64,000 nt of DNA, taken from NCBI RefSeq assembly GCF_046105845.1, contig NZ_CP151004.1; one strand, given 5' to 3'. The position numbers and the translations under genes are program-made. This stretch comes from Escherichia coli (GTDB taxonomy: Bacteria; Pseudomonadota; Gammaproteobacteria; Enterobacterales; Enterobacteriaceae). The notes beneath the pieces are model-generated. The model had not been told where the DNA came from, searched no databases, and was given only the letters and a program-made list of their open reading frames with translations. Each line of letters starts with the position of its first letter. Position 1 is the first letter of the stretch. Positions 1 through 43,615 of the stretch are shown piece after piece.

Positions 1-365
1 GAGGGATCCATACCCTGGAGCACCTGTTTGCTGGTTTTATGCGTAACCATCTTAACGGTAATGGCGTAGAGATTATCGATATCTCGCCAATGGGCTGCCG
101 CACCGGTTTTTATATGAGTTTGATTGGTACGCCAGATGAGCAGCGTGTCGCTGATGCCTGGAAAGCGGCAATGGAAGACGTGCTGAAAGTGCAGGATCAG
201 AATCAGATCCCGGAACTGAACGTCTACCAGTGTGGCACTTACCAGATGCACTCGTTGCAGGAAGCACAGGATATTGCGCGTAGCATTCTGGAACGTGACG
301 TGCGCATCAACAGCAACGAAGAACTGGCGCTGCCGAAAGAGAAGTTGCAGGAACTGCACATTTAG
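1..365 (+). CDS. luxS: S-ribosylhomocysteine lyase LuxS, 5'-truncated at window edge
   Basis: Translation from window start (…[42 protein letters not shown]…LQELHI*) matches LuxS C-terminal two-thirds; stop at 363-365. Confidence 0.95.
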
Positions 366-382
366 TCAGTTTAAGCAGAAGA

Positions 383-417
383 GGCCGGGCTGGTGAAATC
401 ACCGCCCGGCTTTTATT
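383..417 (+). terminator. Rho-independent terminator downstream of luxS (GC hairpin ggccgggc…gcccggc followed by TTTTATT)
   Basis: Inverted repeat 383-410 followed by T-tract 411-417; T-tract overlaps stop codon of the convergent minus-strand ORF 416-1528. Confidence 0.6.
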
Positions 418-1528
418 ACCTGTCAGTCACCCAATATTCCACACTATGTGCTTCATCAGGTTGAGGAACTTCCAGCCTTGAGGCCATCCGCATCACGACC
501 GCTTCAGGAACTGCATACTCGCGTCTGGCATTTTGCTGCTTCCATTGCTCCCATGGCACTTCCAGATAAACGATTTTTACTCGTGCGCCGTAAGCCGTAA
601 ACAGACTGATGAGCTGGCTACGCAGCTGGCGGGTAATGTTCGTCGCATTCCAGATGAACGGCTTTTTCTGGCGTAAAAAAACGCGCGCCTCTTCTTTTGC
701 CTGTTGCACAATACGCCCGGTGGCGGTTTTGTCGTCCGGGCTGGCATTGATTCGCCGCCGCATATCATCAAGGCTGATAACGTCCATTCCCAGGCACAGT
801 TCACTGATATAGCGATCTTTGCCCATACCCGGTAAGCCACACAGCAAAATAACCTCAAAAGATTCAGCCTCCCAGGGAACAAAATCAGGAGAACTTTGCT
901 CATGAGTCAGGTAGTGCCAGCGTGCGGAATCAGACACGAACGGGCGCGCTTTTCCCCAGCATTGTTGCTCATGGCAAAACAGCTCGAACAGATCGATGCG
1001 TTCCAGCATTGATTGCTGGTCCGGGCTTTGGCGACCAAGCAGATCGGCACGAGCAAGCAAAGCGAGCAAACGCGTGTCGATGCGCATTGCAGCTGTGAGC
1101 AGCAAACGCTCCGGTTCCGGACGTTCCAGTAACCATAGCGGTAACCCATGCAGACGCACCAGCGCAACAATTTGCTCGCGTAGCACGAACGGCGTTGGGA
1201 TATCGCGCCATAAAATTTGTCGGGCCGTCAGTTCGCCCCGACGAGCATGGCCAGGCGACTGAATACGTCCGTTTTCCTGCACGGTAGTGCTGCGCTTTTC
1301 AACATCATGCAATAACGCCGCCGCCCATAAAACTTCCTGCTGTTGAGCGGGGAGTTGCTGGAATTCTGGCAGAGTAACGAGGGCGTTAAGTACCATTTCG
1401 GTATGCACGCCGACGTCGCCTTCACCATGATGCTCCGGGTCTTGTGGCGTGTGATGCATCTCCTCAACCCAACTGAAACGCTGGCGTAGCGCCGACCAGC
1501 GTTTATCGTCGGTAAGCTGCCAAATCAT
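416..1528 (-). CDS. HD-domain phosphoesterase / P-loop polynucleotide 5'-kinase fusion (HD-Pnk-like RNA/DNA end-healing enzyme), putative
   Basis: 370-aa ORF; N-terminal HD-domain signature (EHHGEG…VHT…LLHDVEK… further His/Asp), C-terminal P-loop GLPGMGKD (aa 231-238) followed by acidic [11 protein letters not shown]; start ATG overlaps upstream ORF stop (ATGA). Confidence 0.75.
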
Positions 1529-2232
1529 GATTGTTCTCCATAGGTGAACTCATGGGCCATCCGCGCCCGTTGCCAGTGGCGTTTCCAGTGTACGGTAGTT
1601 TTGACATGATTTTTGCGTACATACTTGAAGACGTTATGCGAAAAGTCAGCGACGGAAAACGCATCACGATTCCGGCTGACAATGCCTTCCAGCGTACAGG
1701 GTTGCCCGGTTTGTGTATCCCAGGGATCGAACGCGCCGCGCGCATTGGTCAGCGCCAGAAAATCACGTTGCCAGCTTTTTTCATCATTCCCCGGCTGCGG
1801 GCCGGAGATTTCGGGAACGCAGGGGAAATCAAACAGAGCGGCGTAAAACTGCACCTCTTCCCAGCTCAGCCACATATCCTGGCAGCGAACGGCAAACAGA
1901 TAAAAATCCTGCTCCAGGGCGCGATATTCAATCGAATGGACGGCATAAAGATTTTCACCAAACAACTCCAGATCGCCGAGATCGTTTTTCAGCAGTTGCC
2001 AGCGTTGGCGAATTTTATAGGTCCATGCCGACTGCGTAGGCGCGGCATGGGAACGGGCAAACACGCCGTAGCGGTTAAGGCAGTTATTTTCACCGTCGAG
2101 TTTTTCTGTGTGCACCAATTGCGTGATGGCCTGTAAATCCTGCCAGTAATCGGTGTTAATACGGTCATCGCTGGTGGTGCCAGGGGAGAAAGGATAATGC
2201 CAGGTTCTCCCGTATTTTCGTTGGGTATTCAT
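1525..2232 (-). CDS. Minimal ATP-dependent RNA ligase-like nucleotidyltransferase (Rnl family), putative
   Basis: 235-aa ORF; covalent nucleotidyltransferase motifs: motif I EKLDGEN (K44), motif III FGENLY, motif IV LEGIVSR, motif [11 protein letters not shown]; E. coli-like codon usage; weak SD (GGA) upstream of ATG. Confidence 0.75.
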
Positions 2233-2452
2233 AATAATCCATTATTTTGTGTGTAATAAATGTACGCCCGCGAGGGTGCGAGTTATGGGGTTAAAAGAAA
2301 AATGTGAGTATCACCCGCGAAAGCGAGGGCGAAGGAAAAAGAGAATTAACAACCTGAGCGAATGCTCAGAACCGGTTAATGGTGAATGGAAGAGTTTGGG
2401 GCGGCGAAAAGATACACCGAATGAGTGGATAAAACAACCGTTTGCAAAATGA

Positions 2453-2479
2453 GCAAATAAAAAGGGAGCCGCAGCTCCC
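2453..2479 (-). terminator. Rho-independent terminator of emrB
   Basis: On minus strand GGGAGCtgcgGCTCCC hairpin followed by TTTTTATTT immediately after emrB stop (2490-2492). Confidence 0.7.
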
Positions 2480-2489
2480 TTTGACAACC

Positions 2490-4028
2490 TTAGTGCGCAC
2501 CACCTCCGCCGCCACCTGCGCCAAATGGCGGTTTAGCAAACCACACCAGCCCCAGCAGGACGAGGAATATCCCAGCTGACATCCAGAAGATCTCATTGGC
2601 GGAAATAATCAGCCCCTGATTGGTGATCTGCTGGGCAATCCAGCCTGATGCCTGCTGTTGCGTCATCCCAAGCCCTTCCAGTTGACTATACATCGCCTGG
2701 GCATTCGGGTTGAACGGGTTTACCGACTCAGTCAACTGCGCATGGTGCATCGACTCGCGGTTGGTCCACATGGTAGTGGTTATCGACGTGCCGATAGACC
2801 CCGCCAGCGTTCGCGTAAAGTTAGAGAGGCTCGATGCTGCCGCCAGTCGTTCCGGTGGCAAACCAGACAGCGTAATGGTGGTCAGCGGCATAAAGAAGCA
2901 GGCCACCGCAAAACCCTGGATAAACTGCGGCCAGGCCGACGCGCCAAAATCCATACCTGGTTCAAAGGTATAGGCACGCCAGTAGAAGCAGACGGCATAC
3001 ATAATAAAGCTGAAGGTTACCAGCCGCCGCATATCCAGTTTATGCGCGAAGCGGCCGATAATCGGCGACAGGATCACCGGAATAATTCCTACCGGCGCAG
3101 AGGCCAGACCTGCCCACGTTGCCGTGTAACCGTAGACCTCCTGCAACAACTGCGGCAGCAGAACAATCGCGCCGAAGTAGAGCATATACGCGAGGCTGAT
3201 ACACAAGCAGCCGATGGTGAAGTTGCGCGACTTAAACAACGACAGATCGACTATCGGGTTATCGTCGGTCAGCTCCCAGACAATCAGGAAGCAGATAGCC
3301 ACCACTGCCACCACGGTAAGGATGATAATTTCCTGTGATGAGAACCAGTCCAGCTCTTTACCGCGGTCGAGCATAATCTGCAGGCTACCGATACCAATAA
3401 CCAGCAGTGCCAGCCCCACGGCATCAATCCGCCGCCGTTCGGTGCGGGTTTCACGTCCGCGCAGGGTTTGCAGTGTCATCAACACCACCGCCACGCCAAT
3501 CGGTACGTTGATGAAGAATATCCAGCCCCAGTGGTAATTGTCACTGATATACCCGCCGAGGATCGGGCCGCAAATTGGCGCGACAATCACCGTCATCGAC
3601 CACAACGCCAGCGCGATCGAGCGTTTGGCTGGCGGGTAGTTATTCAGCAATAGACTTTGCGAAAGCGGAATTAACGGCCCGGCGACAATCCCCTGAATCA
3701 CGCGGAAGAAGATCAGCATATTCAGGCTGCTGGAGACACCACACGCCCACGACGCAATAGCAAAGGCGATGGTTGACCAGAGGAACAGTTTCACTTCCCC
3801 GACGCGCTTTGCCAGCCAGCCGGTAAGCGGGATCGAGATGGCATTCGCCACCCCGAAAGAAGTGATTACCCACGTTCCCTGGCTGAGCGATGAGCCCAGA
3901 TTCCCGGCGATAGTGGGGATCGCCACGTTAGCAATGGTGGAGTCCAGCACCTGCATGAATGTCGCCAGTGACAGCGCAATCGTCATAATGACCAGTTGCG
4001 CGCCTTCCAGCGGTTTTTGCTGTTGCAT
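2490..4028 (-). CDS. emrB: Multidrug efflux MFS transporter EmrB
   Basis: ORF 2490-4037; protein MQQQKPLEGAQLVIMTIALSLATFMQVLDST… 14-TM MFS; start moved to ATG at 4028 (MQQQK). Confidence 0.95.
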   Translation of the reverse strand: MQQQKPLEGAQLVIMTIALSLATFMQVLDSTIANVAIPTIAGNLGSSLSQGTWVITSFGVANAISIPLTGWLAKRVGEVKLFLWSTIAFAIASWACGVSSSLNMLIFFRVIQGIVAGPLIPLSQSLLLNNYPPAKRSIALALWSMTVIVAPICGPILGGYISDNYHWGWIFFINVPIGVAVVLMTLQTLRGRETRTERRRIDAVGLALLVIGIGSLQIMLDRGKELDWFSSQEIIILTVVAVVAICFLIVWELTDDNPIVDLSLFKSRNFTIGCLCISLAYMLYFGAIVLLPQLLQEVYGYTATWAGLASAPVGIIPVILSPIIGRFAHKLDMRRLVTFSFIMYAVCFYWRAYTFEPGMDFGASAWPQFIQGFAVACFFMPLTTITLSGLPPERLAAASSLSNFTRTLAGSIGTSITTTMWTNRESMHHAQLTESVNPFNPNAQAMYSQLEGLGMTQQQASGWIAQQITNQGLIISANEIFWMSAGIFLVLLGLVWFAKPPFGAGGGGGGAH

Positions 4029-4044
4029 CACACGCACCTCTGGA

Positions 4045-40299: not shown

Positions 40300-41253
40300 T
40301 TACCATATATCTATGGGTTTTGTTTTCTGCTCATCTAAACAAAATGCACAGATGTAAGCCCCCTTACTTCGGTTGTACTGAACCGTTTCTAAAGCAGAGT
40401 CAAGATGTTTACTATCAAAGTTCCAGCTTTTTTCCATAACAGAAACACATTTTCTGCAATAGAAACTTTCTTTTGAGTTAGTATCTCCTGAATCATTTTT
40501 AGTGTAGCCAAAGAATTTTTTTGCTGATTCCTTTGAACATGCGGAAATGGCTGCAGTGAACTCATAATGAGTTTGAAGCATAGCCCATACAATACCTGAA
40601 AATTCTTCATCCTCGTCTTCATCTAGTCCTATATTAATGCCGCCAGAGGAATGTATTGCTTTATATTTATACCTATGCCATATCCAGTGTGCTGATTCAG
40701 TATTTAGATAGTTGTGAGCACGTACAACTGATGTGAAAATTAGCTCTGGCATTATATCTGTTTTTTTATCAACCGTATGCATAAAACGATTTCTTAGAAT
40801 GCGCATACTATTAAACCAAGTAATAAAGTCATCAGGCAGTGATTTAGAGGCGAAAGTATTATATACTTTAATTAAATCTTGGGCGTCTAATGTGTGGAAG
40901 TCTGAAAATGAAATGTTACCTTCACTATCAGGTTTAGGTGTATTGCGAGTTGCATTCGTGATAAGTAGATAAGGTGATATTTCGACGATAAGTCCTTTTA
41001 GTCTGAATTCAATGGATTGAAGTATCAAATTAAAAGATGTAATCAATTTTGGTCTAGCAAATAACCAATAATGCTCTAAATTTTTAATATCTGATTCTGT
41101 ATAGAATTTAGACGTTTTACAATAACTATTCCAAAGGTTTATATCTCTGTAATCATAAGCTAAATCGGCAATTTTTTCCCAAGCCTCATTTACCATGTGG
41201 TCAGCCATTGTATAAAAATCAGTCTTTGTTGGAATGTCAGTTATCATTATCAA
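40300..41253 (-). CDS. Hypothetical protein with HEPN-like Rx4H motif and C-terminal CxxC…CxxC zinc ribbon (candidate defence/Abi ribonuclease)
   Basis: 317-aa AT-rich ORF; motif RILRNRFMH (R154-x4-H159); C266RKC269 … C302AFC305. Confidence 0.65.
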   Translation of the reverse strand: MIMITDIPTKTDFYTMADHMVNEAWEKIADLAYDYRDINLWNSYCKTSKFYTESDIKNLEHYWLFARPKLITSFNLILQSIEFRLKGLIVEISPYLLITNATRNTPKPDSEGNISFSDFHTLDAQDLIKVYNTFASKSLPDDFITWFNSMRILRNRFMHTVDKKTDIMPELIFTSVVRAHNYLNTESAHWIWHRYKYKAIHSSGGINIGLDEDEDEEFSGIVWAMLQTHYEFTAAISACSKESAKKFFGYTKNDSGDTNSKESFYCRKCVSVMEKSWNFDSKHLDSALETVQYNRSKGAYICAFCLDEQKTKPIDIW

Positions 41254-41484
41254 TCTACCTTTGGGTCTTTATTGTTGTCTATCAAGATATAATATTCAGG
41301 CTGGAGTGGCTAATGTTGATCTACTTATTTTCTCCCGGTAAGTCAGTTTATCGCGATATAAGCCGCATTTGATTTTGGCGACTATGGTCGTGTTAGGTAT
41401 GTATCTGGCGTGTTACTGCGCCAGATTAAATATAAACCAATAATATTAAAGGGTGTTACTCTCTTGACAGATTTAGGGAACAAA

Positions 41485-41679
41485 TCACTCGTCAGCTGAC
41501 TCCCAAGTATCTTTCAGAGTTTCCTGAACAAAAGTTTTAGCTGAATCTTTATCGGCGGTGCGCCTAACAGAAAAACCATCGTTGCTGGTGGCTTTTACGA
41601 TCATCTCCACATCGTCATAATGCTCGCCAATGTATTGGGTTAATTCTTCCTTTAATGCGTCTACAGCGCCGTTTGGCAT
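41485..41679 (-). CDS. Small acidic hypothetical protein (64 aa)
   Basis: ORF-track ORF in AT-rich island, flanked by more than 200 bp non-coding on both sides; no recognisable motif. Confidence 0.45.
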
Positions 41680-42023
41680 TTGGTCATTTTGTCTTTGGCT
41701 ATGGAGATCTCAATACGCATAACATTTCTTTTGTACTGCGTTTGTAGACAGTATTATTCTTATCTGTGTAAATAAACAGTATCAAGACTTCGTTTTAGCT
41801 GCATAAGAAAAAAGAGATGGATACATTCGGAAAGATTTTGATGGTGGTAGGCTAAGTGAATAGCCTAAAGGTGTTTTACCCCAATTATTCCCCGGTATTT
41901 CTCCGCATAAAAAACAATCATAAAAACAACAGCCATAATAGGCTGGTTCTTAAGGGATTTTTGGTCCACGAGAGAATTTGAACCTCCGACCCCCGACACC
42001 CCATAATGGTGTAATTAATCAGG

Positions 42024-42392
42024 TTAAATATTTAGCAGATCCTCTACAATATCATTAAACCCAGATGCCTGTTTAGATACAGAATTGAATAAGTCTCTAA
42101 GTGCTTGTGTTTGCTCAAAAGTTTCCCAAAGTGTTTTATAACTTGGCGTTACAATTGCTAATACTAAGCCTTCCGCCCATGACCATTCATGTTCATCAAA
42201 ATAGTAGCGATATTTTCTGCTGTATATAACAAAATCCTTTTCCTTATATTTAGCATGAAACACAACTTGAATTATATCCTGTGTACCATTAACAAGGTTT
42301 TCAGGCGCATCAATTGCCATCCAATTTATCATTTTTTGGACAGTTAACTTATTTAATGAAACAATTAGCTTTGTGGTTTTATCGTTATGCAT
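42024..42392 (-). CDS. Hypothetical protein (122 aa), second gene of two-gene operon
   Basis: AT-rich ORF starting 2 nt after the stop of ORF 42395-42856. Confidence 0.6.
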   Translation of the reverse strand: MHNDKTTKLIVSLNKLTVQKMINWMAIDAPENLVNGTQDIIQVVFHAKYKEKDFVIYSRKYRYYFDEHEWSWAEGLVLAIVTPSYKTLWETFEQTQALRDLFNSVSKQASGFNDIVEDLLNI

Positions 42393-42394
42393 AA

Positions 42395-42856
42395 TTAGTC
42401 CAGTTGCATATCTTTCACAATTTCGTTAACTCTTGAGTTGAGTATACTCAACTTCTCATAGAGCTTCCAGGCTTGGTCTTGGTCATTGATATTAATGGAG
42501 ATTTCTTTTCTTCGAAAGATTCCTTTGGGTTTGACTTCATCAAAAAATATATCAATCTTTGAGCGTTCCTTGGTTGGAAGCCTGCTGAAAAGGCTTTCAG
42601 TTAGCACTGCACACTCAGTAAACTCCTTACGTATAAATTCTTTCTGAGTAACCCAGTCTCCAATAGCATCATTTATCAATGAGGCTTTTTTTTGAAGATT
42701 GCTATGGATTTCAGGTATTCGAACCTTGTTTCTGAGAGTGGCCTTCAATGAACGCGTCGTAAAAAAAAGTTTTACAGTTACAACAAAACCGACAATACCC
42801 GCTAGGGAGGATATGTCAGTTACCGTCTGTGATAGGGGCCAAGTCAGGATATCCAT
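42395..42856 (-). CDS. Hypothetical membrane-anchored protein (153 aa, one predicted N-terminal TM helix)
   Basis: Hydrophobic stretch SSLAGIVGFVVTVKLFFT near N-terminus; AT-rich; immediately downstream of ssrA terminator. Confidence 0.6.
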   Translation of the reverse strand: MDILTWPLSQTVTDISSLAGIVGFVVTVKLFFTTRSLKATLRNKVRIPEIHSNLQKKASLINDAIGDWVTQKEFIRKEFTECAVLTESLFSRLPTKERSKIDIFFDEVKPKGIFRRKEISININDQDQAWKLYEKLSILNSRVNEIVKDMQLD

Positions 42857-42887
42857 GATGAAAAATCCAATGCTTAAGTTGATACGA

Positions 42888-42940
42888 AAAAACCCGCATA
42901 TGCGGGTTTTTTCGTCGCTCGGGAGCCGCGGCTCCTTTGC
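42888..42940. terminator. Tandem hairpins downstream of ssrA (bidirectional terminator-like)
   Basis: AAAAAACCCGCATATGCGGGTTTTTT palindrome flanked by A/T runs plus GGAGCCGCGGCTCC palindrome followed by T-rich tract. Confidence 0.6.
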
Positions 42941-43037
42941 GTATCCTTTTTTGTCTCCTCACCGTCTGGTCGGTGTCTTGCTGAGACTTCTAACTTCCTG
43001 TTTTTGTTGGTGTTGTCCTTGCACCGTTCAATCATGA

Positions 43038-43400
43038 TTGGTGGAGCTGGCGGGAGTTGAACCCGCGTCCGAAATTCCTACGTCCTCGGTACTACATGCT
43101 TAGTCAGTCTTTACATTCGCTTGCCAGCTGCGGACGGACACGCCACTAACAAACTAGCCTGATTAAGTTTTAACGCTTCAACCCCAGGCAGGGCTTCCAC
43201 GCGATCTCTTTTGGGTTTGACCTCTCTTGATCCCCGTCCTAAGAGCGGAGGCTAGGGAGAGAGGGCTCTAAGCAGGTTATTAAGCTGCTAAAGCGTAGTT
43301 TTCGTCGTTTGCGACTATTTTTTGCGGCTTTTTACGAGGCCAACCGCCCCTCGGCATGCACCTTGGGTTTCGCAAATCCCGTCGAATCCAGAATCAGCCC
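43038..43400 (-). ncRNA. ssrA: tmRNA (SsrA)
   Basis: Reverse complement reads GGGGCTGATTCTGGATTCGACGGGATTTGCGAAACCC…GGTTCAACTCCCGCCAGCTCCACCA, including tag-peptide coding region; boundaries within about 1 nt. Confidence 0.97.
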
Positions 43401-43615
43401 CAATGTGTAACGGTAAGTATACCAGATTCATGAGTGCCATGACCAGCCTCAATGGCGTTATCGTTAAAGATTTAGCACCCATGTAGCCTGATTTTTATTC
43501 GATTAAGCAATGGGATGGCAACATTTTCGTCGGATGTGATAGCCAATAAGATGTGCATTCGCGCCGCCGGAGAGGGAGGCGCGGTGAGGAACTGGTCAAT
43601 AATTGGAGTGCAGGT

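Follow-up and report, generated by a model that had tools for sequence, protein, structure and literature searches.

A two-gene LigB(DdrP)/HD-Pnk cassette between emrB and luxS of Escherichia coli: a probable break-repair system, some of whose relatives adjoin RNA repair genes

The stretch of DNA analyzed here (hereafter the window) comprises 64,000 nucleotides (nt) of the Escherichia coli contig NZ_CP151004.1 (RefSeq assembly GCF_046105845.1), and near its beginning, between emrB and luxS, it carries two intact minus-strand open reading frames (ORFs), one encoding a small RNA ligase-like protein of 235 amino acids (aa) and the other a 370-aa protein in which an HD phosphoesterase domain precedes a P-loop polynucleotide kinase domain (HD-Pnk). 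The pair belongs to the LigB(DdrP)/HD-Pnk family, whose architecture, operon and “non-ligating ligase” puzzle have already been published, and probably constitutes a heal-and-seal cassette for the repair of nucleic acid breaks, RNA of the translation apparatus being its most likely target. The genes, domains and key codons are as follows (all positions are those of the window):

1525-2232, minus strand: gene of the 235-aa mini-adenylyltransferase of LigB/DdrP type, annotated as “RNA ligase family protein”
2101-2103, minus strand: codon of the motif I lysine (K44) of the ligase
1525-1528, minus strand: ATGA stop/start overlap, seen in the sequence, which fits translational coupling of the ligase and HD-Pnk genes
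416-1528, minus strand: gene of the 370-aa HD-Pnk, a predicted bifunctional end-healing enzyme (ORF list, homology and structural model)
959-1498, minus strand: N-terminal HD phosphoesterase domain of HD-Pnk (approximately residues 11-190), with H42, H74-D75, H94, H127 and D162
449-865, minus strand: C-terminal P-loop polynucleotide 5'-kinase domain of HD-Pnk (approximately residues 222-360), with GLPGMGKD, D254-x-x-R257, NATN and R336
818-820, minus strand: codon of the P-loop lysine (K237) of HD-Pnk
39-365, plus strand: 3' end of luxS, one flank of the cassette
2490-4037, minus strand: emrB, the other flank of the cassette

The two ORFs were taken from the ORF list of the window, and the TCAT read on the plus strand at 1525-1528 is ATGA on the minus strand, the TGA of the ligase gene and the ATG of the HD-Pnk gene thereby sharing four nucleotides. 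Both flanks are backed by the RefSeq annotation of near-identical E. coli loci, in which the cassette genes bear the names “RNA ligase family protein” and “ATP-binding protein”; replacing the latter, as assigned by the Prokaryotic Genome Annotation Pipeline (PGAP), with HD-Pnk is the least that might be gained from the present analysis. A preliminary description of this locus, made from the sequence alone, had proposed a coupled pair of ORFs with an ATGA overlap between emrB and luxS, and the ORF list, the sequence and the RefSeq neighbors are all in agreement with it.

Within the 370-aa protein, residues 226-355 match Pfam AAA_33 (E 1e-32), while the match of the window sequence to Pfam HD is weak (E 0.013), the HD domain being corroborated by structure comparison and by the precomputed Pfam HD matches of many homologs. 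Its AlphaFold model has a predicted local distance difference test score (pLDDT) of 92.3, and NCBIfam returned sub-threshold likeness to bacterial Pnkp, PSTK, the HD region of the CCA addition/repair enzyme and HDIG. All of the HD ligands listed above (H74-D75 being part of LLHDVEK) and all of the kinase residues (D254 and R257 being part of SLDDMRR) are invariant in 25 homologs, with H34, E36 and G37 falling on invariant columns as well, and the kinase domain, which most resembles that of C. thermocellum Pnkp, can be aligned with this kinase as well as with T4 Pnk, the D254/R257 and NATN...R segments coinciding with the equivalent Pnkp motifs. Judging by these conserved catalytic residues, the E. 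coli enzyme would possess both 5'-OH kinase and 2',3'-cyclic/3'/2'-phosphoesterase activity.

The 235-aa protein matches Pfam RNA_ligase (PF09414) over residues 38-205 (E 4e-28), and when it is aligned with 28 homologs from Enterobacterales and Bacteroidota (60-86% identity), K44 (TEKLDGEN), E93 (FGENLY), E182/G183 (EGIV) and K203 (FKYVRK) are all found on invariant columns, further conservation being seen in an invariant N-terminal KYGRT.HYPF.PGT.SDDR segment and in a basic C-terminal tail. Its model consists of a single nucleotidyltransferase (NTase) domain devoid of an OB domain or any other appended domain, 170-180 residues of which align to ligase NTase domains in structure comparison, and its nearest structural neighbors are the RNA ligases Rnl5, Rnl2, Rnl3 and REL1, not DNA ligases. 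Placing the protein within Rnl5 (DraRnl/NgrRnl) itself was considered and rejected: there is no N-terminal OB domain, profile comparison with DraRnl (DR_B0094) gave a probability of 1.9%, and the NTase fold is all that the two have in common. Searches of PDB sequences with the ligase, as a single sequence and as a 28-sequence profile, found no relative (the hemocyanin, WD-repeat (Tako8) and poliovirus VP2 matches being spurious), no solved structure for this ligase clade or for HD-Pnk is detectable by sequence in the PDB, and no NCBIfam model matches the ligase. The label “ligase”, insofar as it implies strand joining, is to be taken as a prediction from fold and motifs.

Much of what the preliminary description had read from the translations was borne out. 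The ligase motifs with the adenylylatable K44 and the HD and P-loop motifs of HD-Pnk are all present and on invariant columns, the ligase was rightly said to have no appended C-terminal domain (its model is one domain of 235 aa), and profile and structure comparison place the smaller protein inside the RNA-ligase NTase fold and the larger one in the HD and P-loop kinase folds. Likewise, Pfam, alignment and structure agree with the claim that the phosphatase is of the HD rather than the HAD/DxDxT type and that the domain order is opposite to that of T4 Pnkp, and the report of an HD-Pnk architecture to which it alluded corresponds to published work (Munir and Shuman 2017, cited in PMC6097658; Blasius et al. 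2007, PMC1997131).

A tblastn search of plasmids returned a match on the D. radiodurans megaplasmid MP1, where three overlapping genes are annotated as a 210-aa “RNA ligase family protein”, a TIGR02452 protein and a 413-aa “AAA family ATPase”, with DraRnl close by; this trio is the operon of DR_B0100 (LigB/DdrP), DR_B0099 (PARG) and DR_B0098 (HD-Pnk). With DR_B0100, the ligase of the window shares 36% identity (E 2e-27), K44 standing opposite K40, and with DR_B0098, the HD-Pnk of the window shares 29% along its full length (residues 5-361, E 2e-32). DR_B0098 is an active 5'-kinase of HD-then-kinase layout (PMC1997131), and DR_B0100 forms an adenosine monophosphate (AMP) adduct, which is abolished by K40A, and ligated neither DNA nor RNA (Blasius et al. 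2007, PMC1997131). The HD-Pnk of Runella slithyformis is a 2',3'-phosphoesterase and 5'-kinase (Munir and Shuman 2017, as described in PMC6097658), and its ligase self-adenylylates and, on its own, seals none of the substrates tested (PMC6097658). Runella itself was compared by architecture and through relatives, a Dyadobacter homolog (Spirosomaceae, the family of Runella) being 55% identical.

As a side observation on the same operon, the Arg371 of DR_B0098, which Blasius et al. mutated as the equivalent of T4 Pnk Arg126 (PMC1997131), lies opposite Gln332 of E. coli HD-Pnk, a residue invariant in the family, in a full-length alignment, and because the invariant Arg336 aligns with Arg375, the catalytic arginine of DR_B0098 may be Arg375 rather than Arg371.

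The outcome for the two homologous ligases, both of which self-adenylylate without ligating alone (PMC1997131, PMC6097658), lends some weight to a quite unlikely alternative, in which the 235-aa protein would transfer AMP without sealing, i.e., adenylylate the 5'-phosphate made by HD-Pnk or some other acceptor and so mark, cap or ready the end for RtcB or a host ligase. None of the accessory domains with which other ligases hold their substrates is present in the protein, and neighbors of its relatives process modified ends (PARG in Deinococcus, stripping ADP-ribose from RNA and DNA 5'-phosphate ends (PMC11833690), in Runella a HIT-domain protein (PMC6097658), and Tpt1). The motifs for ligation steps 2 and 3 (E93, E182 and K203) are, however, invariant, and the negative in vitro results may reflect merely wrong substrates. 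Furthermore, the isolated adenylyltransferase domain of T4 Rnl2 still seals pre-adenylylated RNA, which counts against AMP transfer as the final step and leaves sealing as the preferred reading. What the substrate and the true reaction of LigB/DdrP-type mini-ligases are, given that they become AMP-charged yet alone have sealed nothing tried, has been a question since 2007.

Relatives of both proteins number in the thousands, and the identity between E. coli and Bacteroidota sequences is unusually high (53-66%, with 53-59% for HD-Pnk). Gene linkage was assessed in 85 loci, namely the best 80 of 344 loci from a scan of one genome per species and five loci from contig look-up, with ORFs called and clustered. 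HD-Pnk is present in all 85, with a co-oriented ligase gene directly upstream in 84, and the commonest geometry of the pair, as judged by longest-ORF calling, is a 4-nt overlap (30/84). The sole recurrent extra neighbors are RtcB (24 of the 85 loci) and PrfH (14 of these 24), always immediately upstream and co-oriented, and this in two phyla: the RtcB-linked taxa are Serratia, Bacteroides/Phocaeicola, Dysgonomonas and one Flammeovirgaceae genome (locus identifiers L006/L007 and L016-L020 for Serratia; L035, L047, L050-L057, L060, L065, L070, L071, L076, L079, L085 and L086 for Bacteroides/Phocaeicola; L077 for Dysgonomonas; and L025). PrfH scored above the NCBIfam cut-off in Serratia and Bacteroides, as did the PrfH-associated RtcB type in Serratia, the longer RtcB of Bacteroidota being below the cut-offs. 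Tpt1 was found in three loci, one of which, in Dysgonomonas, has the order RtcB-PrfH-Tpt1-Lig-HD-Pnk followed by an ADP-ribose-responsive NtrR-like gene; other Bacteroidota neighbors (oxidoreductases, a sigma factor, DnaE and others) were dismissed as not recurrent.

RtcB2-PrfH is known to rescue and reseal ribosomes with colicin-E3-cut 16S ribosomal RNA (rRNA) (PMC9304027, PMC9223846), and no mention of a Lig/HD-Pnk linkage was found in these two papers, a broad RNA-repair survey not having been covered. The linkage to RtcB, PrfH and Tpt1, taken together with the RNA-ligase-like fold, favors RNA repair, possibly of ribosomal or transfer RNA (tRNA), and its recurrence with RtcB-PrfH in two phyla provides a concrete guess at the missing substrate, i.e., damaged rRNA or tRNA. 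Separately, in the huge phage LR756500 (record positions 24.5-26.7 kilobases), an HNH-nuclease-like N-terminus and a mini-ligase (PHROG 24030, full length) are combined in one 364-aa protein, the gene of which is followed directly by one for HD-Pnk; the phage operon is tightly packed and includes an AAA ATPase as well.

These neighbors also bear on the possibility, already named as an alternative in the preliminary description, that the breaks being mended are those of DNA, with HD-Pnk cleaning the 3'-phosphate/5'-OH ends left by oxidative or radiation damage and the ligase, with or without a partner, sealing them. What speaks for it comes from D. radiodurans, whose DR_B0100-DR_B0098 operon is radiation-induced and has phenotypes concerning DNA damage (PMC6300522), whose DR_B0098 is needed for radiation resistance, its loss leading to radiation sensitivity (Schmier and Shuman 2018, as summarized in PMC6300522), and whose DR_B0100 was reported in one study to ligate DNA, only together with DR_B0098 and PprA (likewise as summarized in PMC6300522); DR_B0098, moreover, phosphorylates a 5'-OH DNA oligonucleotide (PMC1997131). 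E. coli, however, has no PprA, the recurrent neighbors RtcB, PrfH and Tpt1 are RNA enzymes and not DNA-repair genes, the structural neighbors of the ligase are RNA ligases and it is without an OB or DNA-clamping domain, and no LexA-box-like motif was seen by eye in the conserved leader of the cassette (no dedicated search having been run), all of which makes DNA repair an unlikely primary role and leaves repair of RNA preferred.

Turning to E. coli itself, the cassette (at a coverage of at least 80%) is present in 998 of the 5426 complete genomes, in every case on the chromosome, but not in MG1655, which is the outcome of the emrB-luxS junction comparison across E. coli that the preliminary description had put forward as a check. 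The luxS-emrB spacer measures 63 base pairs (bp) in K-12, where it has a hairpin of its own, versus 2124 bp in the window, with nothing in common beyond the gene ends and no border repeats seen. As the same site is occupied in E. albertii, Citrobacter amalonaticus, Klebsiella spallanzanii, Kosakonia, an Enterobacter and Superficieibacter, the cassette is ancestral in these Enterobacteriaceae and was lost from most E. coli, its absence from K-12 being best explained by loss. A mobile-element origin was rejected, there being no border repeats or integrase and the site being common to several genera. With K-12 lacking the cassette at a precisely defined site, this natural presence/absence polymorphism lends itself readily to gain- and loss-of-function tests.

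The ratios of nonsynonymous to synonymous substitution rates (dN/dS), calculated against the alleles of E. coli, E. albertii and Citrobacter, are 0.03-0.07 for the ligase and 0.13-0.17 for HD-Pnk, and the cassette is under purifying selection. Two of the six E. coli genomes inspected have a ligase pseudogene, with an internal stop at codon 30 in VCSW7 (L002, the closest genome) and a frameshift in UPEC957C (L091), and HD-Pnk is intact in both despite this, which hints that HD-Pnk may be retained without the ligase in some strains. In comparisons of the window with other E. coli alleles (L088-L090 and L008), dS is higher for the ligase (~0.23-0.28) than for the neighboring HD-Pnk (~0.07-0.11) by a factor of two to four, which suggests a recombination breakpoint inside the cassette.

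Absence from ~82% of the complete genomes and the two ligase lesions would also suit an ancestral remnant heading for loss in E. coli and devoid of any current function. Both genes of the window are, however, intact and keep every family-invariant residue, dN/dS does not exceed the 0.03-0.17 range, and the synteny, the 4-nt overlap and the conserved leader have been maintained across genera, so that such a remnant seems highly improbable when set against a functioning repair cassette.

The mode of action that the break-repair reading would entail is the following. The HD domain would take off 2',3'-cyclic, 3'- or 2'-phosphates with the help of a transition metal, the P-loop domain would put a phosphate on 5'-OH ends with a nucleoside triphosphate as the donor, and the co-translated 235-aa enzyme would charge itself with AMP at Lys44 and then act on the 3'-OH and 5'-phosphate ends so healed, most likely by sealing them. 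The preferred substrate would probably be rRNA or tRNA that ribotoxins or stress nucleases have cleaved, and the ligase is likely to depend on a partner protein or on a specific structure or end chemistry of its substrate. The proposal is built upon what was established here, namely gene integrity, the folds, the catalytic residues, homology to characterized enzymes, linkage and purifying selection, and from these we infer the enzymatic activities in E. coli, the sealing and RNA as the target. In the preliminary description, healing and resealing had been put forward as one function; its healing and ligase folds are supported, while the resealing part is unproven, since the homologous ligases alone joined none of the substrates tested (PMC1997131, PMC6097658).

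A number of points, it must be said, weigh against this proposal. Enzyme-AMP formation without any joining of DNA or RNA by the ligase alone has been obtained for the D. radiodurans and Runella homologs by two laboratories (PMC1997131, PMC6097658), and the D. radiodurans operon responds to radiation, its phenotypes having to do with DNA damage (PMC6300522). No RtcB, PrfH or Tpt1 gene was detected near the E. coli cassette (tblastn of the window was negative), and the PADLOC-DB 2.0 defense models contain no family for either protein at E <= 0.01. Lastly, the role is dispensable, given that the cassette is missing from ~82% of genomes and the ligase is a pseudogene in two of the six inspected.

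A tentative, rather unlikely extension of the repair proposal would be that Lig/HD-Pnk adds to the ribosome/tRNA damage response a second arm that does not depend on RtcB, rescuing breaks with ends that RtcB can no longer use (e.g., 2'-phosphate, 3'-OH or 5'-OH), the activity of the mini-ligase being confined to 2'-phosphate ends or to structured substrates (16S rRNA nicked within the subunit, or an anticodon loop that has been broken). If true, this would explain why the in vitro assays failed and why linkage to RtcB-PrfH and Tpt1 recurs, and could supply a substrate for the KptA/Tpt1 of E. coli.

The features around the two genes that might govern their expression are as follows:

2461-2482, minus strand: emrB intrinsic terminator, a 9-bp stem followed by a T run, parting emrAB transcription from the cassette
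2233-2460, minus strand: leader/promoter region of the cassette, from a spacer alignment of ten Enterobacteriaceae loci
2437-2432, minus strand: candidate -35 element TTGTTT, by eye and from cross-genus conservation
2414-2409, minus strand: candidate -10 element TATCTT, likewise, 17 nt from the candidate -35 element
2353-2370, minus strand: invariant hairpin CTGAGC-N-GCTCAG with a U-rich stretch after it, from the spacer alignment
384-414, no strand assigned: GC-rich hairpin and T run between the luxS and HD-Pnk stop codons, reading GCCGGGCtGGTG-AAAT-CACCGCCCGGC-TTTTATT

With so clear a terminator behind emrB, the cassette needs a promoter of its own, and the 258-bp emrB-ligase spacer is conserved across Enterobacteriaceae genera, the TTGnnn-17 nt-TATnnT pair being kept even in the most distant loci; a strict sigma-70 scan upstream of the cassette found no promoter. 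From the candidate promoter, the 5' untranslated region would be ~170 nt long. RNAalifold recovered the invariant hairpin of the leader, with almost no covariation, and together with its U-rich tract it could serve as an attenuator or a regulator binding site; no Rfam family was found in positions 1-2600 of the window. On the other side, luxS and HD-Pnk are convergent, and the hairpin between them is the predicted luxS terminator, possibly working in both directions. Directly before the ligase start (2222-2235, minus strand), a conserved ATGGATTAT(T/C)ATG was noted, with an out-of-frame ATG 10 nt upstream of the true start that is kept across genera. Elsewhere in the window, an island at 30778-43401 lies between a tRNA gene (30778-30850) and tmRNA (43039-43401), and within it are a gene of the YpjCB family, an autotransporter of Ag43/AIDA type (1337 aa, 33806-37819), an IS3 transposase and matches to the Rfam families isrC and IS009.

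Among characterized systems, the operon of D. radiodurans resembles the E. coli cassette in having the ligase first, overlapping ORFs and HD-Pnk last, and DR_B0100 shares with the E. coli ligase the N-terminal KY..H.P.SPG...DDR segment, the motif I lysine and the basic C-terminal tail. Apart from its known radiation induction and the PprA partner that E. coli lacks, it differs in having the PARG/TIGR02452 gene between the pair, an HD-Pnk of 413 aa versus 370 aa and a location on a megaplasmid versus the chromosome. The Runella arrangement, as described in PMC6097658, is similarly one of a small ATP-dependent ligase-like ORF directly upstream of, and overlapping, an HD-then-Pnk ORF, but unlike in E. 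coli, it is preceded by genes for Tpt1 and for a methyltransferase-HIT protein. T4-type Pnkp, which in phage T4 works with Rnl1 in the repair of tRNA anticodon breaks, has in turn an N-terminal kinase and a C-terminal DxDxT (HAD) 3'-phosphatase, whereas the phosphoesterase of the E. coli enzyme is of the HD type and N-terminal. Finally, Pnkp/Hen1, RtcB/RtcA and RtcB2/PrfH are, as the E. coli cassette would be, repair systems for ribotoxin-type RNA breaks; the Hen1 methyltransferase, calcineurin-type phosphatase and ligase-kinase fusion of the first are missing from the cassette, and RtcB joins 3'-phosphate to 5'-OH directly, whereas the route proposed for the cassette would be chemically distinct in converting the very same ends to 3'-OH and 5'-phosphate.

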